Origin: Octopus vulgaris
Taxonomy: Eukaryota
Reading direction: 5' to 3'
Assembly (NCBI GenBank): GCA_951406725.2
Contig: OX597843.1
Coordinates: 496,001-560,000 of the forward strand
Length of the DNA stretch: 64,000 nt
The position numbers and the translations under genes were made by a program. Position 1 is the first letter of the stretch; the number at the start of each line of letters is the position of its first letter. Below, piece after piece: positions 7,388-27,498 of this stretch. The notes beneath the pieces are model-generated. The model worked only from the letters and a program-made list of their open reading frames with translations, was not told where the DNA came from and ran no database searches.

Positions 7388-8270
7388 CTTTTATTTGTTT
7401 CAGTCATTTGACTGCAGCCATTCTGGAGCACCATCTTTAATTGAACAAATCGAACCCAGGCCCTTATTCTTTGTAAGCCTAGTACTTACTCTATCATTAC
7501 TCTTTTGCTGAACTGCTAAGTTATGGAGACATAAACACACCAGCATCGGTTGTCAAGCAATGTTGGGGGGACAAACACAGACACACAAACATAGACATAC
7601 AAATATATATATATATATATATATATAGTTAATCAAAACATATATATATATAGTTAATCCAAACATGAAAACACAAAGAGAAAACACAACAACGTGAGGA
7701 CATGGAACAAGTATAGTATTATTGGATGCTCAGGAAAGGAAAGAAGGAGGGTTTAACGTTTCGAGCGGAGCTCTTCGTCGGAAACATAGGAGAAGGAAAG
7801 ATCCAGAGAAGGGAAGACAGAGGAAAAAAAATCGCCAACGGTACACATGAGGTCACATGTCACACACACACACACATATATTCCCTTCTCCCTAGCTCTC
7901 CTGTGTGACCCTTCTGTCTGGCCTTCGCCATGATAGATCGCTAGCCACTACACATTCTTTATTTTCTCTCCTTGTTTCTTTCTGTGTCCCTTTCTGTAGG
8001 CTCGAAATGTTAAAGACTTTTTCATTTCCCGAGCGTTATACTAATACATCTGTTTGTTTTGTACACCACCTGTCTTCGTCTTTTGTTTTTTTTTGTGAAT
8101 TCTCCTCCTATATATATATATATATATATATATATCCTTAAAATCCTTAAATGTTTTAGCCCGAAAGCCGCGGGCATGCTGGGGCACACATGACTGGCTT
8201 CTTTCAGTTTCTGTCTACCAAACCCACTCACAAGGCTTCAGTCATCCTGAGACTATATAGTAGAAGACAT
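7388..8270 (-). mobile_element. SINE family A split by an insertion at 7628-8190
   Basis: 3' half at 7388-7600 and a remnant of the 5' half at 8190-8270. Confidence 0.75.
7751..7785 (-). ncRNA. Minimal type-I hammerhead ribozyme-like motif (U4C variant)
   Basis: Minus strand GTTT-CCGACGA-A-GAGC-TCC-GCTC-GAA-ACGT-T-AAAC: stem I GTTT/AAAC, stem II GAGC/GCTC, palindromic stem III ACGT. Confidence 0.6.
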
Positions 8271-8537
8271 CAGGCTTTGTGCAGTTTCCATCAACCACAT
8301 TGCTTGACCATGGGACCACAGCAGTAGATGTTTGCCCCATTTGAGAACTCAGCTCTATAGCATATAATGATTTGCACTCCTCTCACACAAACTCAGGCCA
8401 CTCAAAGAAACATTCCGCATTGCTCCATCCCAACTGAGATAGACACTAAATATAACAACAACAACAAGCCATGACCACCACCACCAAATTCCACAACATG
8501 GGTACAAAACATTATTCTACAATGCCAAAAGATAATG

Positions 8538-9020
8538 CTACACACATACACGAAGACACACATGCACACGCATGCAAACACACACATACACATGCACACA
8601 GATGTAAACGCACACACACACACATGCGTGCACATGTACTCACACAGGCATTCGTACACACACAACTATATATATATATATATATATTTATACACACATG
8701 CACATACACGCACACACACATATACACACATGCATACACATACACATGCACACACACATCTATGCACACACATGCACATACACGCACACACATACACACA
8801 CACACACATATACACACATACATATACATACACATGCACACACATCCATGCACACACATGCACATACACGCACACACACATATACACACATACATGCACA
8901 CACACATGCACAGATACGTACACACATACATACACACAAACATACACAAATGTCCACGCATGCACATACACACATACACACACACACACAGACTATACCC
9001 CCCCAAACACACACACATAT
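8538..9020. repeat. (CA)/(CATA)/(CACG) compound microsatellite
   Basis: Direct reading. Confidence 0.95.
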
Positions 9021-9573
9021 CCACCCCACCCCCACTCCCACGCGTACACAGTGGAGAGGTGGTGCAGCCGGCGGTGCAACAAACGAACGCTCATATCTGC
9101 AACCCCCCCCTGCCCGATAACAGATCTAGTTCATTGGTATCACAACACAGCAGGGGGCGACGGATAAGATAACAAGACAAATGTTATTGCTACAAATGCC
9201 ATAGCAGGGGGTAAAAACAACTACAACAACAACAACAGTCGCAACACTGATGATAATAATAACGATAATAATAACAGGAATGTACAGAATTGAGAGTGGT
9301 TTTGTTTTATGAGCCGCCATCTGTCCGTCTGTTTGCCTGTAGATGGGTCGGAGGAGAGTAGGACTTTGGTGTGTGTGTGTGTGTGTACGTGTGTTAGACC
9401 ACACAGGCAGAGCTTACATGATATATATATATATATATTCATATATATATAACATAAATAATATACAGCATAATATAATACATACATACATACAATATAA
9501 TATATATATAAGCGATACGAAATGGCAGATTGTTAGGAAGGAGAGACACACAAATAAGAAAGAAAGCAAAGGA

Positions 9574-9613
9574 CCACTGATGAGGTCACAGAATTGTGAC
9601 GAAAGAACTCTGG
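9574..9613 (+). ncRNA. Minimal type-I hammerhead ribozyme
   Basis: CCA-CTGATGA-G-GTCAC-AGAATT-GTGAC-GAAA-G-AA-C-TC-TGG: core motifs present, 5-bp stem II, stem I CCA/TGG, CUC cleavage triplet. Confidence 0.72.
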
Positions 9614-9721
9614 CTGGAATACAATTAATATAAAATAAAGCTGAAGCTAGTGAACACCAAATATATAATGTGTGTGTTTTCATTGGCTAAACTGACACCA
9701 TAACCATCCCCAAATACAACA

Positions 9722-9767
<46 letters not shown>

Positions 9768-10424
9768 TAAATTAGAGATAAAACCACTATTAAGCAAATC
9801 AAACAGAGAAAAACATAAACCAAAACATAATATAAAATTTAAATTATTTAAATTTAAAATTATTAATTTATATTTATAAATTTTTATTTATTTTTTATTA
9901 TTTATCTTTTACTTTTTATTTTTTATTTTTTATATTATTTATTATTTATTATTATTTTTTTTTTAGTTAATCCAAACATGAAAACACAAAGAGAAAACAC
10001 AACAACGCGAGGACGTGGAACAAATATAGTATTATTGGACGCTCAGGAAAGAAGGGAAATATTTATTTATTTATGTAAAATATAAATAATGTGCCGGTGC
10101 CACATAAAAAATATAAGTGCACCCATGCCAGAACAGACAATTGGAGTCTGGACATGCCAAACCATCCAACTCATGCCAGCACAGAAAGCGAATGTTAAAC
10201 ACTGATGATATAATATAATAAATAAAATATACACGAGGAGCACTCCGTTGATTATGACAACAAGGGTCCCAGCTGATATGATCAACAGAACAGCAGATTT
10301 GGTAGGCAGAGACTGAAAGAAGCAGTCATATATGTGTGTGTGTGTGTGTTGTATTACCCCACCATAACTTAGCAGTTCAGCAAAACAAACCAATAAAGTA
10401 CCAGGCTTATAAAAAATAAGTACA

Positions 10425-11010
10425 GGCGCAGGAGTGGCTGTGTGGTAAGTAGCTTGCTAACCAACCACATGGTTCCGGGTTCAGTCCCACTGTGTGACAC
10501 CTTGGGCAAGTGTCTTCTGCTATAGCCTCGGGCCGACCAATGCCTTGTGGGTGGATTTGGTAGACGGAAACTGAAAGAAGCCCGTCGTATATATGTATAT
10601 ATATATATATATAGATGTAGGAGTGGCTGCATGGTAAGTAGCTTGCTTATGAACCACATGGTTCTGGGTTCAGTCCCACTGCGTGGCATCTTGGGCAAGT
10701 GTCTTCTGCTATAGCCCCGGGCCGACCAATGCCTTGTGAGTGGATTTGGTAGACGGAAACTGAAAGAAGCCCATCGTATATATGTATATATATATATATG
10801 TATGTGTGTGTGTTTGTCCCCCTAGCATTGCTTTACAACCGATGCTGGTGTATTTACGTCCTCCGTAACTTAGCGGTTTGGCAAAAGAGACCGATAGAAT
10901 AAGTACTGGGCTTACAAAGAATAAGTTCTGGGGTCGATTTGCTCGACTATGAGGCGGTGCTCCAGCATGGCCGCAGTCAAATGACTGAAACAAGTAAAAG
11001 AGTAAAGAGA
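10425..11010 (+). mobile_element. SINE family A, duplicated head (10425, 10614) plus full body
   Basis: Two consecutive heads separated by (TA)n, then the tail. Confidence 0.9.
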
Positions 11011-11282
11011 GGATCAAGGATCAATTCATTCAACTAAACACTCTTTAAGGCAGAGCTCCAGCATGGCCACAGTCTAATGACTAAAACAAGTAAAAGATGA
11101 AAGATATATGATGATATCTATTAAATACTCTCATAAGACTTTGGTAGGCCTGGGGTTATAACAGAAAATTTTTAAAAAAACATTTACCCAAGGAGCAATG
11201 CAGTGGGATTGAACTCAAACCTGTGTGATTGGCAAGCAAGCTTCTTAACCACATAGTTATACTTAACAGGATAAACGAGATT

Positions 11283-11688
11283 ACTCTTTTACTCTTTTAC
11301 TTGTTTCAGTCATTTGACTGCGGCCATGCTGGAGCACCGCATTTTAGTCGAGCAAATCGACCCCGGGACTTATTCTTTTTGTAAGCCCAGTACTTATTCT
11401 ATCGGCCTCTTTTGCTGAACCTCTAAGTGACGGGGGCGTAAACACACCAGCATCGGTTGTCAAGCAATGCTAGGAGGACAAACACAGAGACTCAAACACA
11501 CGCACACATATATATATATACAATTATACGACGGGCTTCTTTCAGTTTCCGTCTACCAAATCCACTCACAAGGCATTGGTCGGCTCGGAGCTATAGCAGA
11601 AGACACTTGCCCAAGATGCCACGCAGTGAGACTGAACCCGGAACCATGTGGTTGGTAAGCAAGCTACTTACCACACAGCCACTCCTAT
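11283..11688 (-). mobile_element. SINE family A, full length
   Basis: Reverse complement of the consensus. Confidence 0.92.
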
Positions 11689-11983
11689 GTATATTTTTTA
11701 TGTATTTATCAATAGAATTACAAAGGAACTCAAGGAAATGAAAGTATTTTTTCCAACATTAATTTTTACCAACTCGAAAGACAAAAACTTATGTAATTTC
11801 ATCTCAGAATAAGATCTACACATAAATAGACAGCTTTAAATATGTCACCGAGATTAAGAGATTACAGATAATCCATGGATTTATATATAGACAGACGGAC
11901 TGATAAATTACATATAGATGTTCAATAAAAGAGGGGTAGGATGACCCTGGAAAACACACACACACACATATATATAATCTTGT

Positions 11984-12088
11984 GAAGGCACATGGCTCAG
12001 TGGTTAGAGCGTAGAGCTTACGATCGTGAGGTTGTGAGTTTGATTCCCAGACCGGGCTGTGTGTTGTGTTCTTGAGCAAGACACTTTA
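11984..12088 (+). mobile_element. SINE family D head (tRNA-derived)
   Basis: GAAGGCACATGGCTCAGTGGTTAGAGCG...TTCTTGAGCAAGACACT; copies at 43311 and 58626. Confidence 0.8.
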
Positions 12089-12405
12089 TAAAAACATCTT
12101 TTTCTCTTGGCTTTATTGAGAAAATTCTATAGTTTGTAAGATATTTCTTCTTGTTTTTTCTTCAATTTCTGCAATTTCAACCAATCAATGACGTCCATTG
12201 AGGTAAAAAAAACATTCTGTGCCGTATGAATACGTCCCTCGTTTAAGAAACAGATTGGGTTTATTTACATTTCTGAAGGAAAAAAGATACCCTAACTAAC
12301 CCTAACACAGATTGAAATGCAATAGATCGATACTAGGGTCATAATTATGGGTGACAATTTCATATGACACTGCTAGAAAAACCTGCCGTTCAATCCGAAA
12401 AGATC
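12087..12405 (+). mobile_element. Right part of a putative non-autonomous DNA element
   Basis: Ends CTGCCGTTCAATCCGAAAAGATC, roughly complementary to the GATCTTTACCTTTTGACCGACAG start at 24587; the two fragments share TATAAAACATC. Confidence 0.45.
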
Positions 12406-12815
12406 CTAAATATATATAAACATTACCAAAGTCACCTAATTAATATATATGTTTTGTTTATGCCCTTATTGGCTGTGAGATTTCTCCAAGGAAAAATCCC
12501 TTTAAGACATCAAGTGTTAAAAAAAATATTGAATACTTCAGACCAGACAAAATGAATTTTTGCAGGTGAACAAGAATGGTTGATATCAATATTTAAAATG
12601 GTATTTCAGCTCGTTGGCACTGTGTATCTGAGTCACCTCAAAATGAATTCAAATCGCTTGTCTGAGGTATACCATGCGAATTGCAAATAGCATGCAATTT
12701 ATCGGCAGATGTGCAAACAGCACTGCACAAATTTTGAAGTGTGTGTGCGTGTGTGTGTATATACGCACACACTTACAAAGTGTATGTATATATATATGTA
12801 TATATGCACATACAA

Positions 12816-12849
<34 letters not shown>

Positions 12850-12930
12850 CACACACACAAAGTGTTGATATATATGTATATACACACATACACACACGCA
12901 CAAAGTGTTGATATATATATATACATATAT

Positions 12931-13164
12931 ACCGGAGTAAACACATAAATGTGAAACAAGGTGGAAAAAGAGTACTCAAATACCAGTGGTAGAGTAATAT
13001 GCTTTATTTTAAGCAGCAGAAAATTCAACAAAATCTGTTACTCTGAGTTTCTCGTTGCCGTTCATCAGACAGTTTTTGCTAGCAAAAACTGTCTGATGAA
13101 CGGCAACGAGAAACTCAGAGTAACAGATTTTGTTGAATTTTCTGCTGCTTAAAATAAAGTATAT
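12931..13164. mobile_element. Asymmetric fold-back element with hammerheads (Penelope-like pLTR derivative)
   Basis: About 70-bp extension plus a perfect palindrome at 13002-13159 centred on GCTAGC; inserted in (TA)n; second copy at 25332-25560. Confidence 0.8.
13089..13126 (+). ncRNA. Minimal type-I hammerhead ribozyme (mirror copy on minus strand at 13035-13072)
   Basis: CTGT-CTGATGA-ACG-GCAA-CGA-GAAA-CTCAGAG-TA-ACAG: stem I CTGT/ACAG, GNRA-capped stem II, near-palindromic stem III ACTC-A-GAGT, GUA triplet. Confidence 0.72.
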
Positions 13165-13859
13165 ACATATATATATATATACATACATAGATAAATAGAT
13201 AGATAGAAAGATAGATAGATAGATATACACACAAATACAAAGTATATATATATAGATAGATATATCTATATATATATATATACATAGATAGATATATCTA
13301 TATCTATATATATATATATATATATAGATATATATATGGTGCCCCATGCCGCGCTATATATATATATATATATATATATATAGATATAGAGATATAGGGA
13401 GAGAGATAAATAGATAGATAGATACACAAATACAAAGTATATATATATATATACACACACACACAAACACATACAAAGTACATATATACACTCACACACA
13501 GATTATACACACACACACACACACACATTGTCTTAATTTCTGACTAATTAATTGGAGAGTGAACAGGGGAGGGAGCACCTGGAAGGGAGAGGTGTGTGAC
13601 TCACAGAACAGGATGTACATTGGTGAAGATGACTATTGTATGTCCCGGGAGGGGGTCGGGAACAAAGGATAGGGGTACAGCACACAAACACACCTTTATA
13701 TCACAGACACCATTACTGCTACCACCAGCACTGTTTTGCTACACCAGGACTCATCATCACCATGCCCACCACTACTACTTGCACCACAACACCTAATGCA
13801 ACCATTTTTAGAGTATAGGACACTGACACTGCTTGTACTACAACCAATGCCACACCATG

Positions 13860-14378
13860 TACCATCACCACCAACACTACCATCACCACCACATTATGTA
13901 ACATTACCATCAATACTACCACCACCACAACCCATACCATCAATGGCATGTCGCCGAACCATCAACACTACCACCACCACCACAACTCATACCATCAATG
14001 GCATGTAGCCCAACCACCAACACTACCACCACCACCATAACCCATACCATCAACACTATGTAGCACAATCATCAACATTACCGCCACCATCACCAACACA
14101 ACCGATACCATCAATGCCATGTAGCCCAACCATCAACACTACCACCACCACCACCACCACAACCCATATCATTAATGCCGTGTAGCCCAACCATCAACAC
14201 TATCACTACAACCCATACCATCAATGTGATGTAACCCAACCATCAACACTACCACCACCACCACCACCACAACCCATACCATCAATGCCATGTAACTCAA
14301 CCATCAACACTACTACCACCACCACAACCCATACCATCAATGCCATTTAGCACAACCATCAACACTACCACCACCACT
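13860..14378. repeat. About 55-bp ACC-rich minisatellite
   Basis: Unit approximately CCAACCATCAACACTACCACCACCACCACAACCCATACCATCAATGCCATGTAG, repeated about 9 times. Confidence 0.85.
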
Positions 14379-14949
14379 GTCACATAACATCACCACCCTC
14401 ACCTGGCAACCAGTATTTCATTTTTTTCTTTTTTACATACCCATGACTTAGCAGTTGGGCAAGAAGAGAACGAAAAAATAAATAGCAAACCTTAAAAACA
14501 ATATAAGCAGAGAGGCCTATTTGTTCAACTAAACACTTCGAACTGGTGCCCCAGCATGGCCACAACCAAATAGCTGGAACCAGCAGAAGATAAAAGATAT
14601 ATATATATATACATCTGTGTGTGTGTGCATGTGTATGTGTGTATATGTGTGTATATATAGCACACACACACACACACACACACATACACACACACACACA
14701 CACATATATCCTCATAGAGGATATCATAGGTGAGTCAGCTATCATTAGTAATATCATTTACAATGAAATAACAGTATGGTGGTGGTGGTGGTGATGGTGA
14801 CAGCAGTGATGGTGGTCGTTATGGTGGTGGTGGTGGTAGTGGTGGTATGATGGTGATGTGCAAAGCAGAAGCGGAGCCTCAAACAGAGGTAACTAGGTGG
14901 TTTCCTCGCATTCTCTTCCAGAGTACGCACACACATCTAACACAGTCAC

Positions 14950-15614
14950 AAAATAATAGCAATAATAATAAAGATAATAACAATAATAATAATAATAATA
15001 ATGATGATGATGATGATGATAAAAATAAAATAACGATGATGATGATGATGATAATAATGATAATAATAATAACAATAATGATGATGATGATGATAAAAAA
15101 CGATGATGATGATGATGATAATAATGATAATAATAATAATAATGATGATGATGATGATGATGATGATAAAAAAAATAATAATAATAATGATGATGATGAT
15201 AAAAATAAAATAACGATGATGATGATGATGATAATAATAATAATAATGATAAAAATAAAATAATGATGATGATGATGATAATAATGATAATAATAATAAT
15301 GATGATGATGATGATAAAAATAAAATGATGATGATGATAATAATGATAATAATAATAAGAAGAAGAATGATGTTGATGATAATAAAAATATAATAATAAT
15401 AATAATAATAATAATGATGATGATGATGATAAAAATAAAATGATGATGATGATAATAATGATAATAATAAGAAGAAGAAGAATGATGTTGATGATAATAA
15501 AAATATAATAATAATGATAATAATAATAATGATGATGATGATAAAAATAAAATGATGATGATGATAATAATGATAATAATAATAAGAAGAAGAATGATGT
15601 TGATGATAATAAAA

Positions 15615-15662
<48 letters not shown>

Positions 15663-15750
15663 TGATGATGATGATGATAAAAATAAAATGATGATGATGA
15701 TAATAATGATAATAATAATAAGAAGAAGAATGATGTTGATGATAATAAAA

Positions 15751-15792
<42 letters not shown>

Positions 15793-15808
15793 TGATGATG
15801 ATGATGAT
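14950..15808. repeat. (AAT/GAT)n compound repeat with higher-order units
   Basis: Recurring GATAAAAATAAAATGATG and AAGAAGAAGAATGATGTTGATG landmarks. Confidence 0.92.
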
Positions 15809-16029
15809 ACACACATGCAGGCACACACGTGCACACACACACACAGGGCAATACACATGGATATGTTTACACATGTCAGTCATATATACACACACAATCG
15901 TTATACATTTGCACAAACTGAGATATGTACACACAGCAAGATGAGATGTGCTAATTCAAACAAGTCATTCTATACATGAGACAGAAGATCATATATAGAA
16001 TATCGATTACACATACATATTATATATAC

Positions 16030-16067
<38 letters not shown>

Positions 16068-16144
16068 ATATACATGTATGTATGTATTTATGTATATCTG
16101 TATGTTTGTATATATATATGTGTACATATATATTTGTTTGTATG

Positions 16145-16216
<72 letters not shown>

Positions 16217-16319
16217 TAGTTATGTGTATATATCTATATATATATACACACATATAAATGGAGAAATGGTACACATTGAAAGCTACACATTTCTCCGGTT
16301 TCTTTTTCTGCTCTTGTTT

Positions 16320-16402
16320 TAGTATACATTTGCTGGTTTCTTCCGAGGAATCTAGTACTCTTAGCTTAGATTTTTCCTTGGGCTGGCCAGATTGGAGCAG
16401 TC

Positions 16403-16440
<38 letters not shown>

Positions 16441-16453
16441 GACTGCTCAATCT

Positions 16454-16491
<38 letters not shown>

Positions 16492-16515
16492 TCAAGACTG
16501 CTAATCTGCCAGCCC

Positions 16516-16546
<31 letters not shown>

Positions 16547-16629
16547 GACTGCTCCAATCTGGCCAGCCCCAAGGAAAATCTAAGCTAAGAGTACTAGATT
16601 CCTCGGAAGAAACCAGCAAATGTATACTA
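16320..16629. repeat. Inverted repeat, arms about 88 bp, around (TA)n
   Basis: 16320-16408 is the reverse complement of 16541-16629; partial arm starts at 16435 and 16490. Confidence 0.85.
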
Positions 16630-16730
16630 TATATTATCAATAATAAAGGGTGAAATTAATTAATTTGGAATAATCATTAATTTCACCAAGTAGAGCTCGG
16701 CATGTAAAAGACCCATTCAAGGAAGGTTTA

Positions 16731-16967
16731 AGTAATACTAAGTAATTAAGGGTTTAGCAACGATTTGCCTCACACACACCGAATTTAGAAATAGCAGTCA
16801 GAGTTTTGGCTATTCTTTCTACTTAAAGGGAGATCCCAGTAAAAGTGCTGTAGTTTTACTGGGATCTCCCTTTTAAGTAGAAAGAATAGCCAAAACTCTT
16901 TGACTGCTATTTCTAAATTCGGTGTGTGGTGAGGCAAATCGTTGCTAAACCCTTAATTACTTAGTAT

Positions 16968-16971
<4 letters not shown>
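16731..16971. repeat. Fold-back hairpin, arms about 115 bp, 9-nt loop
   Basis: AGTAATACTAAG...CCCAGTAAAA-GTGCTGTAG-TTTTACTGGG...CTTAGTATTACT. Confidence 0.88.
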
Positions 16972-17002
<31 letters not shown>

Positions 17003-17006
<4 letters not shown>

Positions 17007-18447
17007 GACCTCGCACATCAGCAAAGTCATGGAACGAATAGTCAGAAGAAAATTAATTACCTTCCTTGAGGAAAATGACTTGCTGACTAACACCCAACAT
17101 GGTTTTCCGACCAGGAAGACGCTGCCAGACTCAGCTCTTACAACACTATGACTGGGTGCTGAAACAACTGCTCAACCACTCAAATGTGGAAGTCATATAT
17201 CTGGACTTTGCAAAGGCTTTTGATAAAGTCAGTCATGGAATGGTATGTCACAAACTGTGCCATCTCGGTATTGTCAGAAAACTGGGAGAATGGCTTCATG
17301 ACTTTCTGAAATATATAAATCAGGAGGTAGTAGCCAATGGGGCTACCTCCAATGACACGCAAATAGTGAGCGCTGTCCCACAAGGTAGTGTTCTGGGACC
17401 ACTACTGTTCATAATGGCCTTCTCAGATATGCCCTCAGCCACACAAAGAACCACGATCACAAGTTATGCAGATGATACAAAGTCTCACAGGTGATACAGA
17501 ACCTTAAAGACACTGTGCACTTGCAATGTGAGCTGGATGAAATATACAAGTGGGCTGAAAAGAATAGCATGCAGTTCAATGCTGAAAAGTTTCAAGCCTT
17601 GTGCTATCAGCTTGCAAAACTAAATGCAATACCCAATTAAATACACTGGACCTGGAGGGATTGCAATCCCAGAGGCACAATCAGTGTGAGACCTGGGCAT
17701 GAGTAATGATGCATCCTTCTATGCGTATGTTGCTAAGTTGGCAATGAAATGCAGGCAGCTGACAGGATAGATTCTTAGAACTTTTAGAACAAGAGATCGG
17801 GAAACCATGATGGTCCTCTGAAAGACACTTGTCCTAAGCCACTTTGACTATTGCTCTCAGCTATGTTCACCAACCAGTGTCAAATTAATCACAGAACTTG
17901 AGGCAATCCAACGAAGCTACACGAAGAAGATAGCCTCTATGCAGCATTTAAGCTTCTGGGAAAGACTCAAGAGATCAAGACTCTATTGTTTAGAGCGTAG
18001 GCAAGAAAGATATGCCATAATATACATCTGGAAGATCATAGAGAAACTTGTCCCAAAATTTGGCATCGAGAGTTACACAAATATTAGAACAGGACACCAC
18101 TGCATAGTGCAAAGAACTCCAAATTTGACATCAAGATATACGACAAGATACTGCAACAGCCTGGACTTCAGGGGACCATAGATCTTCAATATTCTCCCAA
18201 AGGACCAGAGAGACCTGCATGGGGTGGATGTAGGTGTCTTCAAAATGAAATTGGACCACTTACTGTCAAGTGTCCCAGATGAACCAACTTTACATCAGGA
18301 GGTGCAGATGAGGGCAGCGGCATCAAACCCCCTCATGCACCAAATGGCAATTTCTAAAAAAGAATTAGTGAAGTAAAATTAAGTAGCAACACCAAATGGT
18401 GGTGCCCCGGCATGGCCACAGCTCATGAGCTGAAACTAGATCAAACC
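17003..18447 (+). pseudogene. 5'-truncated CR1-group LINE, ORF2 reverse transcriptase relic with 3' tail
   Basis: Motifs QHGFRPGR, YLDFAKAFDKV, VPQGSVLGPLLF, YADDTK, LYCLERRQERY; stops and frameshifts present. Confidence 0.92.
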
Positions 18448-18484
18448 ATACATATATAAGTAAGTATTTCATTTATATCTCGCG

Positions 18485-18551
18485 TATTTGCCGCTGAAGA
18501 GGGGAAAATTTCTCACGAATTAACCCCGAAATTGGGACCAATACGGTAATA
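18485..18551 (+). ncRNA. Type-I hammerhead ribozyme
   Basis: GCCG-CTGAAGA-GGGG-(19 nt)-CCCC-GAAA-TTGG-GA-CCAA-TA-CGGT: canonical core and all three stems; predicted cleavage after A18543. Confidence 0.8.
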
Positions 18552-18687
18552 ACAAATTTTTTAGAGATTTCTATCGGTTTGTTTCAAGAAGCATAAATTA
18601 TAATGGTTATTGAAAAGTTCTGTCTTTTTTCGGTATCTTTGGCATTAGAATTTTTCTTTTGCCCTTATCTTGTAAATTATGTATATG

Positions 18688-18740
<53 letters not shown>

Positions 18741-19479
18741 GTGTATATATATGTATATATATACACACATACATACTCACATGCATATACATACACACAT
18801 ACATACATACATACACAGATATACACACACATGCTTACACTCATGCACACGTACATGCATATATATATAAACACACACTTACACACACACCTATTGATAT
18901 ATATACATATATATATACATATATAAATAGGTGTAGAGAGAGAGAAAAAGAGAGAGTATGAGCAAAGGATGCATGAATGCCTGATGCATGCAACAACACT
19001 TCACTGCAACATGCCAAAATAAATATACTGCAACAGCAACAACAACCATCACACCACTCTCTACTCTTTCACCAACAGCTCCTTCCATCCAAGCCAACAC
19101 CCCCACCTCAACTCCCTCCCTCTCACCACCACAGAGTGGGGAGGAGGGAGAGGGTCCCCCCCATCGTATCGGTCCCCAGTCCCTCTGGTCTTAGTGCCAA
19201 GAAGACACAGTCAGGCTGACAACACTGAGGACCACCCCTGTCTCACACTAACAGAGAGAGAGAGAGAGACAGAAGGAGAGAGAGAGAGAGAGAGAGAGAA
19301 CTGTTGCCGCCAAAGGGTGGTGGCAGGAGGAAGGTTTGAGGAAGCCCCCCCCCAGCAACGAGGGGTGGGGAGAGGGAGGAGGAAGAGGCGGAGGAGAAAG
19401 AGGACAGAAACTGGGTTATACACTCAAACACACCCAGATGGTTTCCAGTGTTCCAGCAGATAATATCATAGCACCATCC

Positions 19480-21180
19480 GACACCACCACCACCAACACC
19501 GCCACCACCTCCATCCCTGCTACCACCACCAACACCACCACACCACCACCACCATCACCACCATCACCGCCATCATCGGCATCACCACCACCACCACCAC
19601 CATCACCACCACCGCCATCACCACCACCATCATCATCATCATCGGCATCACCACCATCACCACTGCCTCCACCCATCGCTGCCACCACCTCCATCGCTGC
19701 TACCACCAGCACTGACGGCACCCCCCATACACCCCCATCACCACCACCACCGCCACCATCACCACTGCCACCACCTCCATCGCTGCTACCACCAGCACTG
19801 CCGTCACCCCCACCCCCATCGCCACTCGCACCGTCAACACCGTCGCCCCCATCGCCACTCACCGTCAACACCGTCATTGACAGAAGCAACAGTGAGGAGG
19901 AGAACTACGAACCTGATGCTCGCTTCACGAATATAACCCAGGTTCTAATCATCATCAGCAGCAGCAGCAGCAGTGACATCATCATCATCGTCATCGTCAT
20001 CATCATCATCATCATCATCATCACAGTTATTGTTGCTATTATTCATTACAATCATCACCCTCATCACCAATCACAATTATTGTTACAAAGACTGTTAAAC
20101 TAATAATTGTCAGACATCTTTCTCATCAAGCTCATCATCATCATCATCATCATCATCACAATCATTATGGCAAAACCATCACAATCAGCATCACCATCAT
20201 CTATCATCATCATCATCATCATTGTGCTCATCATCACCAGGGTTATCTTCAGCATTGTCATCATCGTCACCATCATCATCATCATCATTTTCACCACCAT
20301 CATCATCTTCACCACTACCATCATCATCATCAGCATCATCATCACCACCACCATCATCATCTTCACCACTACCATCATCATCATCATCACCATCACCATC
20401 ATCATCACCCCCATCATCATCATCATCTTCACCACCATCATCATCATCATCATCATCACCACCAACCATCATCATCATCATCACCACCATCATCATCTTC
20501 ACCACTACCATCATCATCATCACCATCACCATCATCATCACCCCCATCATCATCATCATCTTCACCACCATCATCATCATCATCATCATCACCACCAACC
20601 ATCATCATCATCATCACCATCACCATCATCATCATCATCATCTTCACCACCATCATCATCATCACCACCATCATCATCATCACCATCACCAAGTTGCTCA
20701 TCACTTTCCATCACGGTCACTGACATCAGCCTCCTCCTCCGCCTCCTCATCTTTCTCATCATCATAATTCACCATCATAATCATCATCACCATCATCATC
20801 ATCAACGGGCTCAATTATCACCGCGATATAACAACCTTACTCTCATCACGCTTGTCATCATCATCATCCTCATCATCATGATTCTCATCAAAACAACCAA
20901 CAACAATCGTCACCATAACAATTACAATCACCACCATCATCATCATCGTCAACATGTTTCTTGTCATCCATATCAGCCACCCCTCCTCCTTCTCCTCATC
21001 ATCATCATCATTTACCATCATGATCATCATCAACATCATCATCATCATGTTGCTTGTCATCCATATCAGCCTCCCCCTCCTCCTCATCATCATCACCATC
21101 ATCATCATCAACAGGCTCAATTATCACCGCAATTAGCATAGCAACCTTACCCTCATCATCACCATCACCATCATCGGTGG
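19480..21180. repeat. (CAC/CAT)n compound trinucleotide repeats with local duplications
   Basis: Direct reading; gives poly-P/H/I/S frames. Confidence 0.9.
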
Positions 21181-21394
21181 CAGCGGCAAAGTCAACATCC
21201 TAATCATCGTCAACTGAGTAAATGCCTGTCTTCGCTAATTAAGCTACATAACTAACCTTATTATCTTACAGAATACAAATTAGGTTACACACACACAAAA
21301 AACAATCATACATATACAATTGTATACACACATATATATATATGCATACACACACACATGGATATCCATTTACATGCATATATTTGTGAGTGTA

Positions 21395-21425
<31 letters not shown>

Positions 21426-21696
21426 GCATGTGTAAGTATATATGCATATTTTGATATTTGAATATCTGTGTGTGTGTGTTGTGTGTATATATAAACACAG
21501 ACTTGCATATGTGTGTACACATGTATACACATGCATATATGTATGGATGTATACATAAACAAACGCACACATACACACATATATATATATATATGTTCAT
21601 ACATTTCCATTTGTTTCTCTCGTTTGCAAAAAAAGTTTTTTCGTATTTCATATTTCATGTTGTTTACGTTTTCTGACGTCCTGTACCCATATATGC

Positions 21697-21727
<31 letters not shown>

Positions 21728-21777
21728 ATAATAAATCTCAGAGCAAGTTATAAACAGTAGCTGCAACACATCATGAA

Positions 21778-21989
21778 GTATATTTGCCATTTAAATATGG
21801 CTAACCCCTAAGGGCGGATGCTATTGTAGTTTGTAGCCCCCAGGAGGACACCTCCTCCTGCTGGCTTTAGACACACTTTCTGTGCCCTATCAGAGTTTGC
21901 AAAGGGAAGCTACTCTTCCCGAAGACGGGGCTACAAACTACAGTAGCATCCACCCTTAGGGGTTAGCCATATTTAAATGGCAAATATAC
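21778..21989. mobile_element. MITE-like element, 63-bp inverted arms, 86-bp spacer
   Basis: 21778-21840 versus 21927-21989 with two transitions; adjoins (TA)n. Confidence 0.7.
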
Positions 21990-21990
21990 G

Positions 21991-22052
<62 letters not shown>

Positions 22053-22087
22053 CACACACAAACATACATATATGAATATATATTTAT

Positions 22088-22270
22088 ATCATCATCATCA
22101 TCCCTTAACACCTGTTTCCATGTTGGCATGCGATGGACGGTTTGATCAGAGCTGGCAAGCTGGGGAGCTGCACCAGTCTCCAAATCTGATTTGGCATGGC
22201 TTCTACAGTTGAATGCCATTCCTAACACCAACCACTTTACAGAGTGCGCTGGGTGCTTTTAACGTGCCAT
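22088..22270 (-). mobile_element. SINE family B tail, degenerate
   Basis: (CAT)n followed by the reverse complement of the B tail. Confidence 0.75.
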
Positions 22271-22444
22271 CAGCATGAGTGCTTCCATGTGGCAGCAGCG
22301 TAAGTGCTTTTTACACAGCTCCATTATCAACCTCATAATTACACACCCAACCTTGTATGCTTGAGCTAGGCAGATGGGGCAGAGTTTCTATGACCGGGGG
22401 CCATTCCAGTCACTGACCTGCAACTGTTTGTAAGCAATGTAATA

Positions 22445-22516
22445 TATATAGTAGTAGAGTGGTAAGTATCCCCGCCTGTCACGCGGGAGACCGGGGTTCG
22501 ATTCCCCGCCGGGGAG
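22445..22516 (+). pseudogene. tRNA-Asp(GTC) pseudogene lacking the 5' acceptor strand
   Basis: GTAGTAGAGTGGTAAGTATCCCCGCCTGTCACGCGGGAGACCGGGGTTCGATTCCCCGCCGGGGAG matches metazoan tRNA-Asp from position 7; positions 1-6 are TATATA; a TTTTT run follows about 8 nt downstream. Confidence 0.88.
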
Positions 22517-22532
22517 GCAAGTTATTTTTATA

Positions 22533-22922
22533 GGCGCAGGAGTGGCTGTGCGGTAAGTAGCTTGTTTACCAACCACATGGTTCCGCGTTCAGTCCCACTG
22601 CATGGCACCTTGGGCAAGTGTCTTCTACTATAGCCTCGGGCCGACTAAAGCCTTGTGAGTGGATTTGGTCGACAGAAACTGAAAAGAAGCCCATCATATA
22701 TATGTATATATATATATATGTGTGTGTGTATGTCCCCCTAGCATTGCTTGACAACCGATGCTGGTGTGTTTATGTCTCCGTTACTTAGCGGTTCGGCAAA
22801 AGTGACTGATAGAATAAGTACTGGGCTTAAAAAAAGAATAAGTCCCGGGGTCGATTTGTTCGATTAAAGGCGGTGCTCCAGCATGGCCGCAGTCAAATGA
22901 CTGAAACAAGAAAAAGAGTAAA
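22533..22922 (+). mobile_element. SINE family A, full length
   Basis: Consensus head and tail. Confidence 0.92.
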
Positions 22923-22926
22923 GGGA

Positions 22927-22995
<69 letters not shown>

Positions 22996-22996
<1 letters not shown>

Positions 22997-23071
22997 TAGC
23001 AGTATCGCCCGTCGTTGCTCGGATTTGTAAGGGAAATATATATATATAGATAGACGGATATATATGTACTT

Positions 23072-23107
<36 letters not shown>

Positions 23108-23330
23108 TGTTGTTTTTAAAACAATATGCATTAAAATGGAAAAAAATTATGGTAAATTATTTTTAAAATCGTAGACTCATCATAGACGCGCGCTAATACC
23201 CAGAAGGGTTCGATATGAATCACGACTATAAGATACCCACTTTTGGTTACACTGCACCGCAAAATGTGGGAGTAGTTAGGAATCTAAATCGTAGGAGACA
23301 GACACACAACTTCACTTTTATATATAAAGA
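22996..23330 (-). mobile_element. Non-autonomous Helitron
   Basis: Minus strand starts TC and ends with hairpin CCGAGCAACGACGGG then CTAG; inserted between A and T. Confidence 0.8.
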
Positions 23331-23447
23331 TTTATCAACAATCACTTGCTATGCAAGTACATCTCCGTAATATATAATTTATATTTTTATTTAACTGAAT
23401 GCCATGTATTCATTTCCAAGTAAGTTTATATATATATATATATATAT

Positions 23448-23500
<53 letters not shown>

Positions 23501-23880
23501 GATATATATGTACTTGTATGTGTGTGTGTATGTGTGTACAGTATGCTGTTTTTAAAACATATGGCATGTAAAACAGCATAGTACAGTGTGGACCTGTTGG
23601 TGGGGTTGTTAGTGTTGTTGACATTGCTTTAGCCCTAGGTAAGCCAGTCCTGTGATCGCAGCTGGAAACAGCTATGAACATCATGTTTTCGTTCTCTGTT
23701 CACTCGTAGTATATCACCACCCCACCCCCTATCTCTCTCTACCTCCTGCTTTATCTTCTGTCATCGCTGTCTGCACCAATCAGCTTCTTGGGCTCTTTGC
23801 CCCCAGAGGGAACACCCTGCTTATTATATGGAGACATCTCTGTGGTTGAATGATATTACAAGGCAGCAATCAACACTAAA

Positions 23881-24088
23881 GGCGGCGAGCTGGCAGAAAC
23901 GTTAGCATGCTGGGCGAAATGCGTAGCCGTATTTCATCTGCCGTTACGTTCAGAGTTCAAATTCCACCGGGGTCTACTTTGCCTTTCATCCTTTCAGGGT
24001 CGATAAATTAAGTACCAGTTACGCACTGGCGTCGATGTAATTGACTTAATCCGTTTGACTGTCTTTGTTTGTCCCCTCTATGTTTAGA
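23881..24088 (+). mobile_element. SINE family C (Meta-domain-like)
   Basis: GGCGGCGAGCTGGCAGAA head, GAGTTCAAATTCC B box, GCCTTTCATCCTTTC.GGGTCGATAAATTAAGTACCAG central block. Confidence 0.8.
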
Positions 24089-24416
24089 GTGAAAATCGAA
24101 ATCGATCAACATCAATGGAAATTGTAGTTGTGAGACCAGTGCCGGTGGCACATAAGAGAACCAGCGCCGCCTCGACTGGTCTCTGTGCCGGTGGCACGTA
24201 AAAAGCACCATCCGATCATGGCCGTTGCCAGCCCCATCTGGCACGTAAAAAGCACCCACTACACTCACGGAGTGGTTGGCATTAGGAAGGGCATCCAGCT
24301 GTAGAAACACTGCCAGATCAGACTGGGCCTGGTGCAGCCTTCTGGCTTCCCAAACCCCAGTTGAACCGTCCAACCCATGCTAGCATGGAAAGTGGACGTT
24401 AAACGATGATGATGAT
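24089..24416 (+). mobile_element. SINE family B 3' part
   Basis: Repeated GTGGCACGTAAAAAGCAC units and RTE-type tail. Confidence 0.85.
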
Positions 24417-24693
24417 ATGTCATCTCCCCCCACTCTCTAATATATATGTGCAAAGGTTTCATGTGTTAATGCCCAAAACTCTCTGCACCTTGAGTCACCC
24501 TGTCGCTTCTGCTAAATATTAATAAAATTATGCACATTTATTTATATATTGTGTTCTATTTTTCCTGTCCGCATCAACATACCCAGATCTTTACCTTTTG
24601 ACCGACAGATTTAAAAAATAATTTTTTTTAACTAAACACTTTCAAACTTCGTAAACTGGTAGAATGTGTCATATAAAACATCCCTTACTCTTA

Positions 24694-25197
24694 CTGTTCT
24701 TATTCTGGCAGCTATGCTCTCAGTGCACCCCCACCCACTGCTACTGACTTGGTCACCTAAGTAACAGAAGCTATCAACAGCCTCTAGCTTACCCCACTGG
24801 CAGTTGATGGAGTCTATTTTCTGTACATTTGTAGTGTTTATTGTACCTGTGCACCTACCACACACAAAAACTATTTTCCTTGTTAAGCATCCTCTGATAT
24901 TTCTGCACCTCTTATGTGTCTATAACCTACACTGGGTACACCTTATGAAATTTCTACCTACACCTTTTCTACAGATTGAGCAGGGTCATCTACCTGAAGG
25001 GGTTAGTGATTTATCTGCTCTTCTACTTACAAAGATTTGGGTTTTTGTTAGATTAAGGCCCTTTGATTCTAGACCTTGCTTCCATGTCTGAAATTTCTTC
25101 TCTAGTTCTAGTAGTGATTTGGCTATAAGAGAAAGGTCATCAGCATAGAGGAGCTCCCAGGGATAGCCAGTCTTAAATTCCTCTGTTATTGCCTGCA
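24694..25197 (-). pseudogene. RTE-clade LINE RT fragment with a PHD finger
   Basis: LLYADDL..GLESKGL, then CSIC..CTQC.L*THKRC..CGRC (C4HC3), then VDSFCYLG; in-frame stops. Confidence 0.85.
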
Positions 25198-25224
25198 TCG
25201 GAAAAAATGCTATCTAATGGCTGG

Positions 25225-25283
25225 ATAACTGAAGATATGGTGGCGTGGATTTCCACCTTGGCATTCGAAACTCGGAGTGTTAT
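25225..25283 (+). ncRNA. Degenerate hammerhead ribozyme
   Basis: ATAA-CTGAAGA-(stem II with ATG/CAT and GTGG/CCAC)-GAAA-CTCGGAG-TG-TTAT; G at the cleavage position and a mismatched 10.1-11.1 pair. Confidence 0.5.
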
Positions 25284-25331
25284 AATGGCTACCGAATAAT
25301 TGTCACATATTACATTTATATATATATACAT

Positions 25332-25560
25332 ACTGGAGTAAACACATAAATGTGAAACAAGGTGGAAAAAAGAGTACTCAAATACCAGTGGTAGAGTAAT
25401 ATGCTTTATTCAAAAGCAGCAGAAAATTCAACAAAACCTGTTACTCTGAGTTTCACGTTCCCGTTCGTCGGACAGTTTTTGCTAGAAAAAACTGTCCGAC
25501 GACGAATGTGAAACTCAGAGTAACATGTTTTGTTGAATTTTCTGCTGCTTTAAATAAAGT
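25332..25560. mobile_element. Second fold-back hammerhead element
   Basis: Same extension and GCTAG centre as the 12931 copy; minus-strand motif at 25438-25475 CTGT-CCGACGA-ACG-GGAA-CGT-GAAA-CTCAGAG-TA-ACAG. Confidence 0.8.
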
Positions 25561-25753
25561 ATATATATATATATATATATATATAATCTGAGTTTGACTC
25601 ACAATCAAGAGTTCATGAGGTCAATTCCTGGACCAGACAGAACATTCACTCCTTGAGCAAGAGAATTCATTTCACACATGAAAAAAAAAAAAAGAAACTA
25701 CAAGTGCATGCATACACACTACTAAAACAAAAAGAAAAGAAAATGAAGAGTAA

Positions 25754-25797
<44 letters not shown>

Positions 25798-26087
25798 GGC
25801 TAAGGAATACAATTATAGATAGGCAGCTTGCAACACCCTCTTACGCCTCCATCCGTCTCTCCTCTCCTCCGTCGAAAGTAAATAAATAAGTGAGATAAGA
25901 AAAATAATAGATGCAGTTTGAAAGAGAGAAAAACGAGAGAAAGAGAAAGAGAAGGGAGATAATGAGAAATACAGAAAGATTGGCAGAGTATTTGTTACTG
26001 GTATCACCTCTTGTGATTATCTTAAGAAAATAAGTAAACAAGAGTTACCTTTCTTTAATTTTGTTTTGCTGCCAGGGTGAACGTGCG

Positions 26088-26124
<37 letters not shown>

Positions 26125-26317
26125 TAAAAGTCCATAACTCAGGAAAAAAATGCACTCATATATCTATCAGTAGGGTGGGTATACAGTACATTTCGATGTG
26201 TGTGTGTGTATATACATACATACATACATATTTACATAGATACATAAATACATATATACATCCATATACAAACGCACACACATACACACACACACACACA
26301 CATACATATATATGCAT

Positions 26318-26720
26318 TCTTTTACTTGTTTCGATCATTTGACTGCGACCGTGCTGGAGCACCGCCTTTAGTCAAACAAAATGACCCCAAGGCTTATTCT
26401 TTGTAAGCCTAGTACTTATTCTATCAGTTCTATTTCTGAACCGCTAAGTCACAGGGACGTAAACACACCAACATTGGTTGTCAAACGATGGTGGGAGAAC
26501 AAACACAGACATACAAATACATACACACACACGCACACACGCACACACACACACACACATATATATATACAACAGGCTTCTTTCAGTTTCTGTCTACCAA
26601 ATCCACTCACAAGGCCTTGGTCAGCCCAAGACTATAGTAGAAGATGCTTGCCCAAGATGCCACACAGTGGGACTGAACCCAGAACCATATGGTTGGGAAG
26701 CAAGCTTCTTACCACACAGT
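26318..26720 (-). mobile_element. SINE family A
   Basis: Reverse complement of the consensus. Confidence 0.88.
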
Positions 26721-26729
26721 CATACACAC

Positions 26730-26770
<41 letters not shown>

Positions 26771-26894
26771 TAGATAGATTCGGATGAATATGGTACTTAA
26801 GTTGAGGCACCAGAATTTAGTATGATATTATCCATATAATTTCAAAATAAGGTGATTAAAATCAAATATCCTTGTTGCTTTGATTATATATATA

Positions 26895-27280
26895 CTAGCA
26901 GTATCGCCCGGCGTTGCTCGGGTTTGTAAGGGAAATAACTATAAAGCATTTTTAGAGAGTTATAGCCAAAAAATAGCAAAAAAATGGGAAAAAAAATGAT
27001 GGTAAATTTTTTTTTGATAGTTAAAAAGGTCGAGTTGCGTCCCCTAGACCATCTGTGGTTTGTGTTTCTGATTGTCGACCCCATGTCGAATTTATCGATC
27101 TTTTTCAGAACTGGGGGAACTTTTCAAAATTTTCGCTGCGTTAGTTTTGAATTATGACATTGGGCTATGCGTGTGTCAAGTTTCATCAGAATCGGTTGAA
27201 AGCCGTGGTCAGGGTGAGGGTACAACCAAACAGACACACAGAAACACACACAGACAAACTGCCGTTTATATAGAGAGAGA
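26895..27280 (-). mobile_element. Non-autonomous Helitron
   Basis: Minus strand starts TCTCTCTCTATATAAACGGCAG and ends CCCGAGCAACGCCGGG-CGATACTG-CTAG at an A/T junction. Confidence 0.82.
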
Positions 27281-27372
27281 TATAGTTGAAATTTATAGAA
27301 AAGCAAAAGATGAAGGTAGATGTATAAAGAACAAGCAAGTGTATTAGTTTGATGCTTAGGAAAATGAAATAG

Positions 27373-27410
27373 CCTTTTATGTTTCGAGCCTATGCTCTTC
27401 AACAGAAAGG
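27373..27410 (-). ncRNA. Degenerate hammerhead (family of the 7751 motif)
   Basis: CTTT-CTGTTGA-A-GAGC-ATAG-GCTC-GAAA-CA-TA-AAAG; A6 is mutated. Confidence 0.45.
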
Positions 27411-27498
27411 AATGAGAGAAAATAAATGGAGAGAGAATTTTTAAAAAAACCTGTAGATTTAGTGGTCAAGCATGGTAAAACACACACACACATGCACA

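Follow-up and report, generated by a model that had tools for sequence, protein, structure and literature searches.

We analysed a 64,000-nucleotide stretch of the Octopus vulgaris genome (contig OX597843.1, positions 496,001 to 560,000; hereafter the window), which is rich in microsatellites and carries a series of short elements with hammerhead ribozyme motifs next to (TA)n tracts. A first-pass annotation had listed hammerhead-like folds in this region, and a fold of this kind was found at or near each of the sites it named. A type-I descriptor (core CYGANGA with or without an extra base, at least 3 bp in each of stems I and II, GAAA, a short stem III and UH) gave four matches with an intact core, with core residue C3 at 7781(-), 9577(+), 18494(+) and 25471(-). 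The remaining listed sites are mutated or damaged copies belonging to the same families as the intact ones. None of 12 block-wise dinucleotide shuffles of the window contained an intact motif, and allowing one core mismatch produced 0-2 matches per shuffle and no further match in the window. Searches beyond the window covered the 2.8-Gb genome in 227 contigs. In a 770-kb sample (77 ten-kb stretches taken at round coordinates) the descriptor gave 8 strict matches, against 0-1 in each of 10 shuffles. At its gathering threshold Rfam reported no hammerhead in the window, its single match being a tRNA. The hammerhead motifs in the window are real.

The copies fall into six families, which we name by their window copies: A (7781), B (27405, with a core-deleted copy at 7925-8105), C (9577), D (two hairpins), E (18494) and F (25229). 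Family A is represented by a solo pseudo-long terminal repeat (pLTR) of a Neptune/Nematis-like Penelope-like element (PLE) at 7653..7859(-), which has C3 at 7781, an extra A after A9, a 4-bp stem II, ACGU as stem III, predicted cleavage after 7755 and (TA)n past its 3' end. A second A piece, at 9964..10058(-), is a 3' fragment that ends short of the hammerhead. The first-pass annotation had missed the core-deleted family B solo pLTR at 7925..8105(+), in which the core and part of stem II are deleted and which begins at the family's fixed 5' end, described below. The other B solo pLTR, of a Neptune/Nematis-like PLE, lies at 27290..27475(-) with C3 at 27405; its core reads CUGUUGA, without the A6 that is missing family-wide, and its stem III is altered to ACAU. 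The family C copy at 9513..9725(+) is a 3'-terminal piece with C3 at 9577, an extra G and predicted cleavage after 9610. Family D, a Hydra-clade PLE, is present as two hairpin insertions. The first, at 12934..13165(-), is a head-to-head arrangement of two arms (12997-13080 and 13081-13164) followed by a tail of about 70 nt; its hammerheads, C3 at 13072(-) and 13089(+), have an A-A mismatch at the base of stem II and lie inside an 84-bp near-perfect hairpin. The second, at 25334..25560(-), has an intact hammerhead with C3 at 25471(-) and predicted cleavage after 25442, a damaged mirror arm at 25496(+) that had likewise gone unlisted, and again a tail of about 70 nt. The two hairpins fold at -111 and -140 kcal/mol, and according to these predictions such folding would hide or block the ribozyme fold. 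Family E is represented at 18455..18679(+) by a 5'-truncated monomer of a non-coding tandem unit of about 450 bp, probably a retrozyme, with C3 at 18494 and predicted cleavage after 18543. Family F, also a Hydra-clade PLE, has a solo pLTR at 25190..25320(+) with C3 at 25229; because the cleavage position of this copy (25279) is occupied by G, in contrast to the U of 37 of 39 family arms, it is probably inactive. The cleavage positions predicted earlier, after 9610, 13122 and 18543, were placed correctly.

The motifs proved less uniform than first described. The core is intact in four window copies (one each of A, C, D and E), and the F consensus is intact with a bulge in stem II. The single common core that had been assumed does not extend to family B, in which A6 is present in none of 36 copies, and a young subfamily of C departs from the type-I core at A9, which is kept in 1 of 71 arms. 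Within families the core is less variable than the flanks in A, C, E and F, though not in D. For the self-complementary stem III that had been proposed, dimer duplexes of the family consensus were calculated at -1.7 (A and B), -7.4 (D), -8.9 (E) and -9.7 (F) kcal/mol; AGAACU of family C gives +1.4 kcal/mol as a dimer and is not self-complementary. The idea of minimal hammerheads of the Penelope type within TA-targeted retroelements was supported.

As the first-pass annotation had stated, no Penelope open reading frame (ORF) lies in the window: tblastn with five PLE proteins gave no match. When the sequence upstream of genomic copies was followed, five of the six families (A, B, C, D and F) were found to run through a 3' untranslated region (UTR) into a Penelope-like ORF. 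A C-terminal GIY-YIG nuclease was found for all five, and a reverse transcriptase (RT) for C, D and F. In the long copies linked to an ORF the same pLTR is present, with 85-95% identity. Since A, B, C, D and F continue upstream into an ORF, their window copies are solo pLTRs or 3'-terminal pieces of coding PLEs. It had been suggested that all of these elements are non-autonomous families mobilised in trans and that linking them to Penelope ORFs would be a useful check. The link was made for A, B, C, D and F but not for E. Non-autonomous status, taken to mean that no coding version exists, thus does not hold for the five families whose longer copies reach a GIY-YIG ORF, and it is retained for E, a genuine non-coding unit. 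Some of the solo pieces may have been re-mobilised in trans.

For family C, one locus (L083) contains an RT thumb, a CX4CxxC linker and a GIY-YIG nuclease, all upstream of the hammerhead, and pieces of the ORF were found upstream at 12 of 29 other loci. The protein from this locus retrieved the young C subfamily, in which open frames of 1,310-1,312 aa were present in 9 of 128 scored matches; four of these ORFs are 99.2-99.7% identical. Copies of the young subfamily are arranged as pLTR-ORF-pLTR, with inverted 5' copies and partial tandems. The window piece is 88% identical to an ORF-linked older copy and 78% identical to the pLTR of the intact 1,312-aa elements. Pfam scans of the whole C protein and of its C-terminal 308 aa returned no family, as did a scan of the D proteins, and a sequence search of the PDB gave no match. 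The identity of the C and D proteins was taken from motifs, alignment members and a fold search. Among the alignment members of the C protein, 7 of 36 matched GIY-YIG and 11 of 36 matched RVT_1, and its predicted structure (predicted local distance difference test score 88.6) returned telomerases at ranks 1-8 of the fold search. When a distant homologue was used to search the genome, family C alone was retrieved again. One intact C ORF (L201, 2763-6701) includes an Asn-rich stretch, with 33% Asn over residues 251-510 and 7% elsewhere. An annotated octopus host-gene isoform (P0101) contains a piece 98% identical to the C protein over 21% of the query, which is either an exonised piece or an annotation error.

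The links of the other families were traced in the same way. In D, 3 of 30 upstream-walk loci pass a 1.3-kb UTR into an ORF with RWK, DKT, CxxC and CxH motifs, and the second Cys of the linker is changed in the one copy read. In F, 1 of 30 loci shows the order RT, CxCX5C linker, GIY-YIG, UTR (about 0.9 kb) and hammerhead, with CxxC present. The B hammerhead lies behind a GIY-YIG domain at one locus (L313) and on the same strand downstream of GIY-YIG at 9 of 14 loci fetched from 41 matches. In A, a CA-rich UTR is joined to the hammerhead at 5 of 6 loci fetched from 40 matches, and one locus (linked via L416 and L421) reaches an open nuclease end. This A protein has a CX4CxxC linker before its C-terminal GIY-YIG and a CCHH pattern; the same motifs occur in C and, partially, in the frameshifted B. 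The A and B nucleases are 50% identical over 115 aa. On these motifs D and F are classed as Hydra-clade PLEs, and A, B and C appear Neptune/Nematis-like by linker and CCHH pattern. Some candidate structures were set aside. The RT fragment lying close to one A copy (L115) comes from another PLE, which has a 3' end of its own. At L117, where an E-like hammerhead follows a GIY-YIG piece, a TA tract and other repeats intervene, and no link was counted. A tandem of F, 1.38 kb in size (L150), reflects duplicated flanking DNA. A second young PLE family, with an 811-aa ORF that matches RVT_1, was seen at six loci (L334, L341 and L361-L364) with a direct repeat in L361; no convincing hammerhead was found in its 3' UTR.

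Family E differs in that its upstream sequence leads back to the previous unit, with a spacing of 448 bp at one locus (L382) and about 470 bp at another (L041). The unit has no stop-free frame over 73 aa, and no GIY-YIG ORF was found upstream of it. Among five E relatives, 97% of stem cells are paired, compared with 47% or less in slid controls, and 5 of 15 pairs are changed on both sides; the sequences were chosen by the descriptor, which makes this test partly circular. Two E copies 5.9 kb apart were considered as a pLTR-ORF-pLTR arrangement and rejected, as they belong to a segmental duplication. By sequence, E fits a non-LTR retrozyme, the only non-coding family of the six, and it must be mobilised in trans.

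To estimate abundance, we counted core-containing arms in the 770-kb sample and found 29 (A 7, B 12, C 1, D 5, E 1 and F 3), a density of about 38 per Mb, or roughly 100,000 genome-wide. The nine arms of the window correspond to about four times the sampled density. A first look at the genome gave 969-2,486 candidates per family for A, C, D, E and F, which are not copy numbers; of these, 40 per family were scored, with identities of 87-99%. D and F are also present in contigs of sequencing runs labelled organism B and organism C.

The (TA)n borders described earlier hold reliably after the 3' end but not always before the 5' end. Among 47 unbiased arms, 26 run into a TA repeat at the 3' end, compared with 8% of random positions, and at alignment 3' ends (TA)n was found in 29/32 (A), 32/33 (C), 50/51 (D), 34/45 (F) and 22/59 (E) cases, the value for E being depressed by a deletion in the reference that broke alignments early. 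Two preferred 3' ends, 55-80 nt apart, occur in each of C, D, E and F, and A has a single 3' end within the 137 nt examined. Because the first ATG of the C ORF lies 135 nt downstream of the core, both C 3' ends lie inside the start of the ORF. Many copies of these families have an inverted second arm without a tail, with inversions in D, E and F; tail and inversion have already been described for PLEs (PMC8557442). A single fixed junction in D, seen initially, was dropped since it came from a biased query, and D junctions vary among copies. Among 28 D arm pairs (21 typed), the two arms share a haplotype in 20 of 21 and are mixed in 1 of 21, and one locus (L017) seems to be a second exception. 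Shared haplotypes fit one template or templates of the same age and mixed pairs hint at two RNAs; arm haplotypes cannot separate fold-back from double priming. Just upstream of the window (L152, 690-2100), eight TA-separated family B units lie in tandem, six of which have the same internal deletion removing hammerhead stem II.

The 5' ends of the short copies are also sharply placed. Of 30 D copies picked solely by sequence 3' of the cleavage site, one begins at that site and nearly all extend through the core. Relative to the core, D arms begin at -17 to -7 in 27 of 39 cases (15 of 39 at -17 to -13), with no ends between -18 and -65 and four arms beyond. Family A ends lie at -86 to -82 in 11 of 27 copies, with 4 beyond, and B ends at -73 to -66 in 12 of 53, with 1 beyond, many B ends being alignment breaks. 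In F there are no ends between -37 and -77, and 6 of 40 lie beyond. Unbiased arms agree with these walls, which were passed by 1 of 7 in A and 0 of 9 in D. A YCAKTY hexamer stands at each wall, at -84 (A), -72 (B), -17 (D) and -33 (F), and we take it to resemble the animal initiator. The pile-up of 5' ends of short A, B, D and F copies at this motif, and not at the cleavage site, suggests that they are run-off copies from the 5' end of an RNA. An internal TATA-less promoter has been described in the pLTR of Drosophila Penelope (PMC2377424), and initiator-like motifs, solo copies and junction palindromes in rotifer pLTRs (PMC3846280).

We consider it fairly probable that the short pieces are pLTRs of at least five coding PLE families, together with the non-coding E, made when RT started near the front of an uncleaved RNA and ran off its 5' end. 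The RNA would begin at the initiator-like motif, 17-84 nt upstream of the ribozyme core. After nicking (TA)n, the RT/GIY-YIG protein would initiate cDNA at either of two internal sites, which lie 70-270 nt downstream of the core. A start at the copy nearest the RNA 5' end would yield a 90-230-bp solo pLTR with a fixed 5' end, and a start at the far copy a long, randomly 5'-truncated element. Use of both start sites, through priming of both target strands or fold-back of the first cDNA, would give a hairpin with a tail on one arm, and throughout the ribozyme would be copied uncut and be unneeded for insertion. In a pLTR-ORF-pLTR transcript the front start-site copy would have its full context and the rear copy often would not, so that front-primed run-off copies would be common. 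In E, the tandem arrangement preserves what lies on either side of the start sites, and the protein would be borrowed from a PLE. That PLEs routinely shed solo pLTRs and hairpins by starting at the front site and running off at the cap is a more tentative generalisation.

Several points weigh against this explanation. Families A, B, D and F yielded no intact full-length ORF, the ORF links of A and F consist of one locus each, and a protein partner of E was not found. The motif, which has a chance of 0.019 of occurring in a 7-nt window, was chosen after the ends had been seen, and C and E are without such a wall. The queries that drew the A and F copy sets extended upstream of the core, so that the 5' ends in these sets are biased. 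RNA starts were deduced from genomic copy ends; contigs of uncertain type gave no information on ends. In addition, the long D copies listed lack the haplotype (GGAA/GU) that dominates the short hairpins, as would fit a short master element, a comparison limited by the long-D query having come from the other haplotype.

Such a master element is the core of one alternative, according to which PLE pLTRs gave rise to the short copies of A, B, D and F, and these have become masters resembling short interspersed elements (SINEs), with an internal promoter and copied in trans. Besides the absence of GGAA/GU from the long D copies listed, this would account for the large excess of fixed-end short copies over long ones, and pLTR sequences sufficed for trans mobilisation in a rotifer (PMC3846280). 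We regard it as unlikely, since the long ORF-linked copies share the same pLTR at the identity given above and the sole PLE studied in vitro needs about 55 nt of RNA past the RT start, which the solo copies are without (PMC11167929). Moreover, D junctions differ from copy to copy, which argues that hairpins are remade at each insertion and not copied whole. A second alternative, which we think has little chance of being right, treats all short copies as 5'-truncated insertions primed at the 3' end, with the wall as an RT stop at RNA structure or a microhomology hot spot. Most PLE insertions are indeed 5'-truncated (PMC4209133; bioRxiv 10.64898/2026.07.22.740005), in D and F the wall is 17-33 nt away from the ribozyme fold, with short palindromes close by, and family C, with its many long copies, fits this account. 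The A and B walls, however, are 72-84 nt away from the fold, the same type of hexamer marks the stop in four families whose upstream sequences are unrelated or divergent, and D has no ends between -18 and -65 although copies traverse that stretch. That the elements are miniature inverted-repeat transposable elements (MITEs) of TA-targeting DNA transposons, or chance folds with an incidental hammerhead likeness, is very improbable: D, F and several neighbouring repeats are hairpins and Rfam detects no hammerhead, but the shuffle controls of the window and of the 770-kb sample, the compensatory stem changes among E relatives, the one-sided tails, the variable junctions and the collinear RT/GIY-YIG ORFs all speak against it.

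The altered cores bear on the part of our proposal in which the ribozyme stays uncut. Besides the family-wide absence of A6 in B, position 9 is C in 70 of 71 young C arms, compared with A in 29 of 31 older C copies. Such core changes would be expected to reduce hammerhead cleavage. As both B and young C are widely spread with changed catalytic cores, hammerhead cleavage looks dispensable for spread, as judged from genomic copies.

Other repeats were noted around these elements. A decayed reverse transcriptase fragment of the long interspersed element type (17004-18440, read by eye) lies immediately upstream of the E copy, and a degraded family D copy, whose arms have both collapsed and whose hammerhead is gone, lies at 841-925. 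A relaxed core search gave no hammerhead in three further repeats (16275-16630, 16630-16975 and 21730-21995), which are flanked by TA, have an inverted or hairpin structure and are related to sequences elsewhere in the genome; they may be ends of ribozyme-less PLEs. Pieces at 530-660 and 9763-9830, and at four loci outside the window (L219, L011, L212 and L296), resemble 3' pieces of further hammerhead families, whose intact motifs occur elsewhere in the genome, one as a perfect hairpin. The tRNA match (22451-22509, 39.9 bits in Rfam) has a GTC anticodon and is without part of the acceptor stem.

This genome bears on what the PLE hammerhead does and on how tails and inversions arise. Its six families come from at least two PLE lineages, and one of them seems still to be active; their natural variants of the core and their sharply defined ends make it directly testable whether cleavage is needed and where reverse transcription starts and stops. 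If run-off from front starts is true, the genome would record, in roughly 100,000 octopus copies, where PLE transcription starts and that the template was uncleaved, and the families with altered cores would show that the hammerhead is dispensable in vivo. At the density of core-containing arms found here, these PLE-derived pieces could also readily be misfiled as SINEs, MITEs or unknown repeats.

The kinds of element found here, coding PLEs with pLTR hammerheads and the retrozyme E, match published ones. Two parts were not found in print: the fixed 5' walls at an initiator-like motif and the altered cores in widely spread families. In the literature covered, which lay outside Repbase, Dfam, preprint supplements and subscription journals, we found no octopus PLE hammerheads and no 5' walls at initiator motifs. 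Among O. vulgaris repeats annotated in 2026, 31 Penelope-like families are given as recently active, and the main text of that annotation mentions neither hammerheads nor ribozymes (PMC13282606). A 2014 study already described minimal hammerheads in the pLTRs of PLEs, together with motif pairs on opposite strands and single motifs ascribed to truncated elements (PMC4209133), and their cleavage as dimers is summarised in PMC6765202. The octopus set shares with them the type-I fold, the extra base after A9, a tiny or palindromic stem III, several consensus families per genome, opposite-strand pairs and a majority of single motifs ascribed to truncated PLEs. It differs in having five families tied to ORFs and mapped 5' ends, in the core changes of B (no A6) and young C (no A9), which were not seen in the parts of those accounts consulted, and in the A-U pair at 10.1-11.1 of D in place of G-C.

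Marks of the Hydra clade are RWK, DKT, a CxCX5C linker, CxxC and CxH, (TA)n and a hammerhead (Craig et al. 2021, PMC8557442). D shares RWK, DKT, CxxC and CxH, F shares CxCX5C and CxxC, and both have (TA)n and a hammerhead; their 3' UTRs are long in comparison (1.3 kb and about 0.9 kb). Stems I and III of D are nearly those at the 3' end of Hydra-2_Amil, and Hydra-1_Obim of Octopus bimaculoides is a Hydra element with a (TA)n preference and a hammerhead (PMC8557442 supplement). Because the Hydra-1_Obim hammerhead, as given there, is unlike those of D and F, these look like further Hydra families. The Neptune/Nematis clade is marked by a CX2-5CxxC linker and CCHH together with phylogenetic position. 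A and C resemble it in the CX4CxxC linker, C-terminal GIY-YIG and CCHH pattern, and the B nuclease is related to that of A. C is divergent in comparison, with no Pfam match for the whole protein and with its Asn-rich stretch, which resembles the N-rich inserts known from rotifer Penelope ORFs (PMC3846280).

Non-LTR retrozymes are recognised by a 150-450 bp non-coding tandem unit with a hammerhead in each unit. E resembles them as a head-to-tail repeat of about 450 bp, non-coding and low in GC, with one type-I hammerhead per unit (PMC7229834; bioRxiv 10.64898/2026.07.22.740005), and in occurring as monomers, dimers and inverted copies. In contrast to them it also has the PLE tail, inverted 5' copies and (TA)n insertion. 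The closest functional parallel to the proposed steps is Poseidon of Anolis carolinensis, in which cDNA begins at two internal sites just inside the ORF, both target strands are extended and, in vitro, the RNA past the start sites is required but hammerhead cleavage is not, uncleaved RNA serving as template (PMC11167929). On the proposed reading the octopus elements would be alike in the two RT start sites that define the tail, the extension of both strands, the AT-rich targets and a ribozyme that would not need to cleave. They add a class of solo copies with fixed 5' ends, which the parts of the Poseidon study consulted do not describe.

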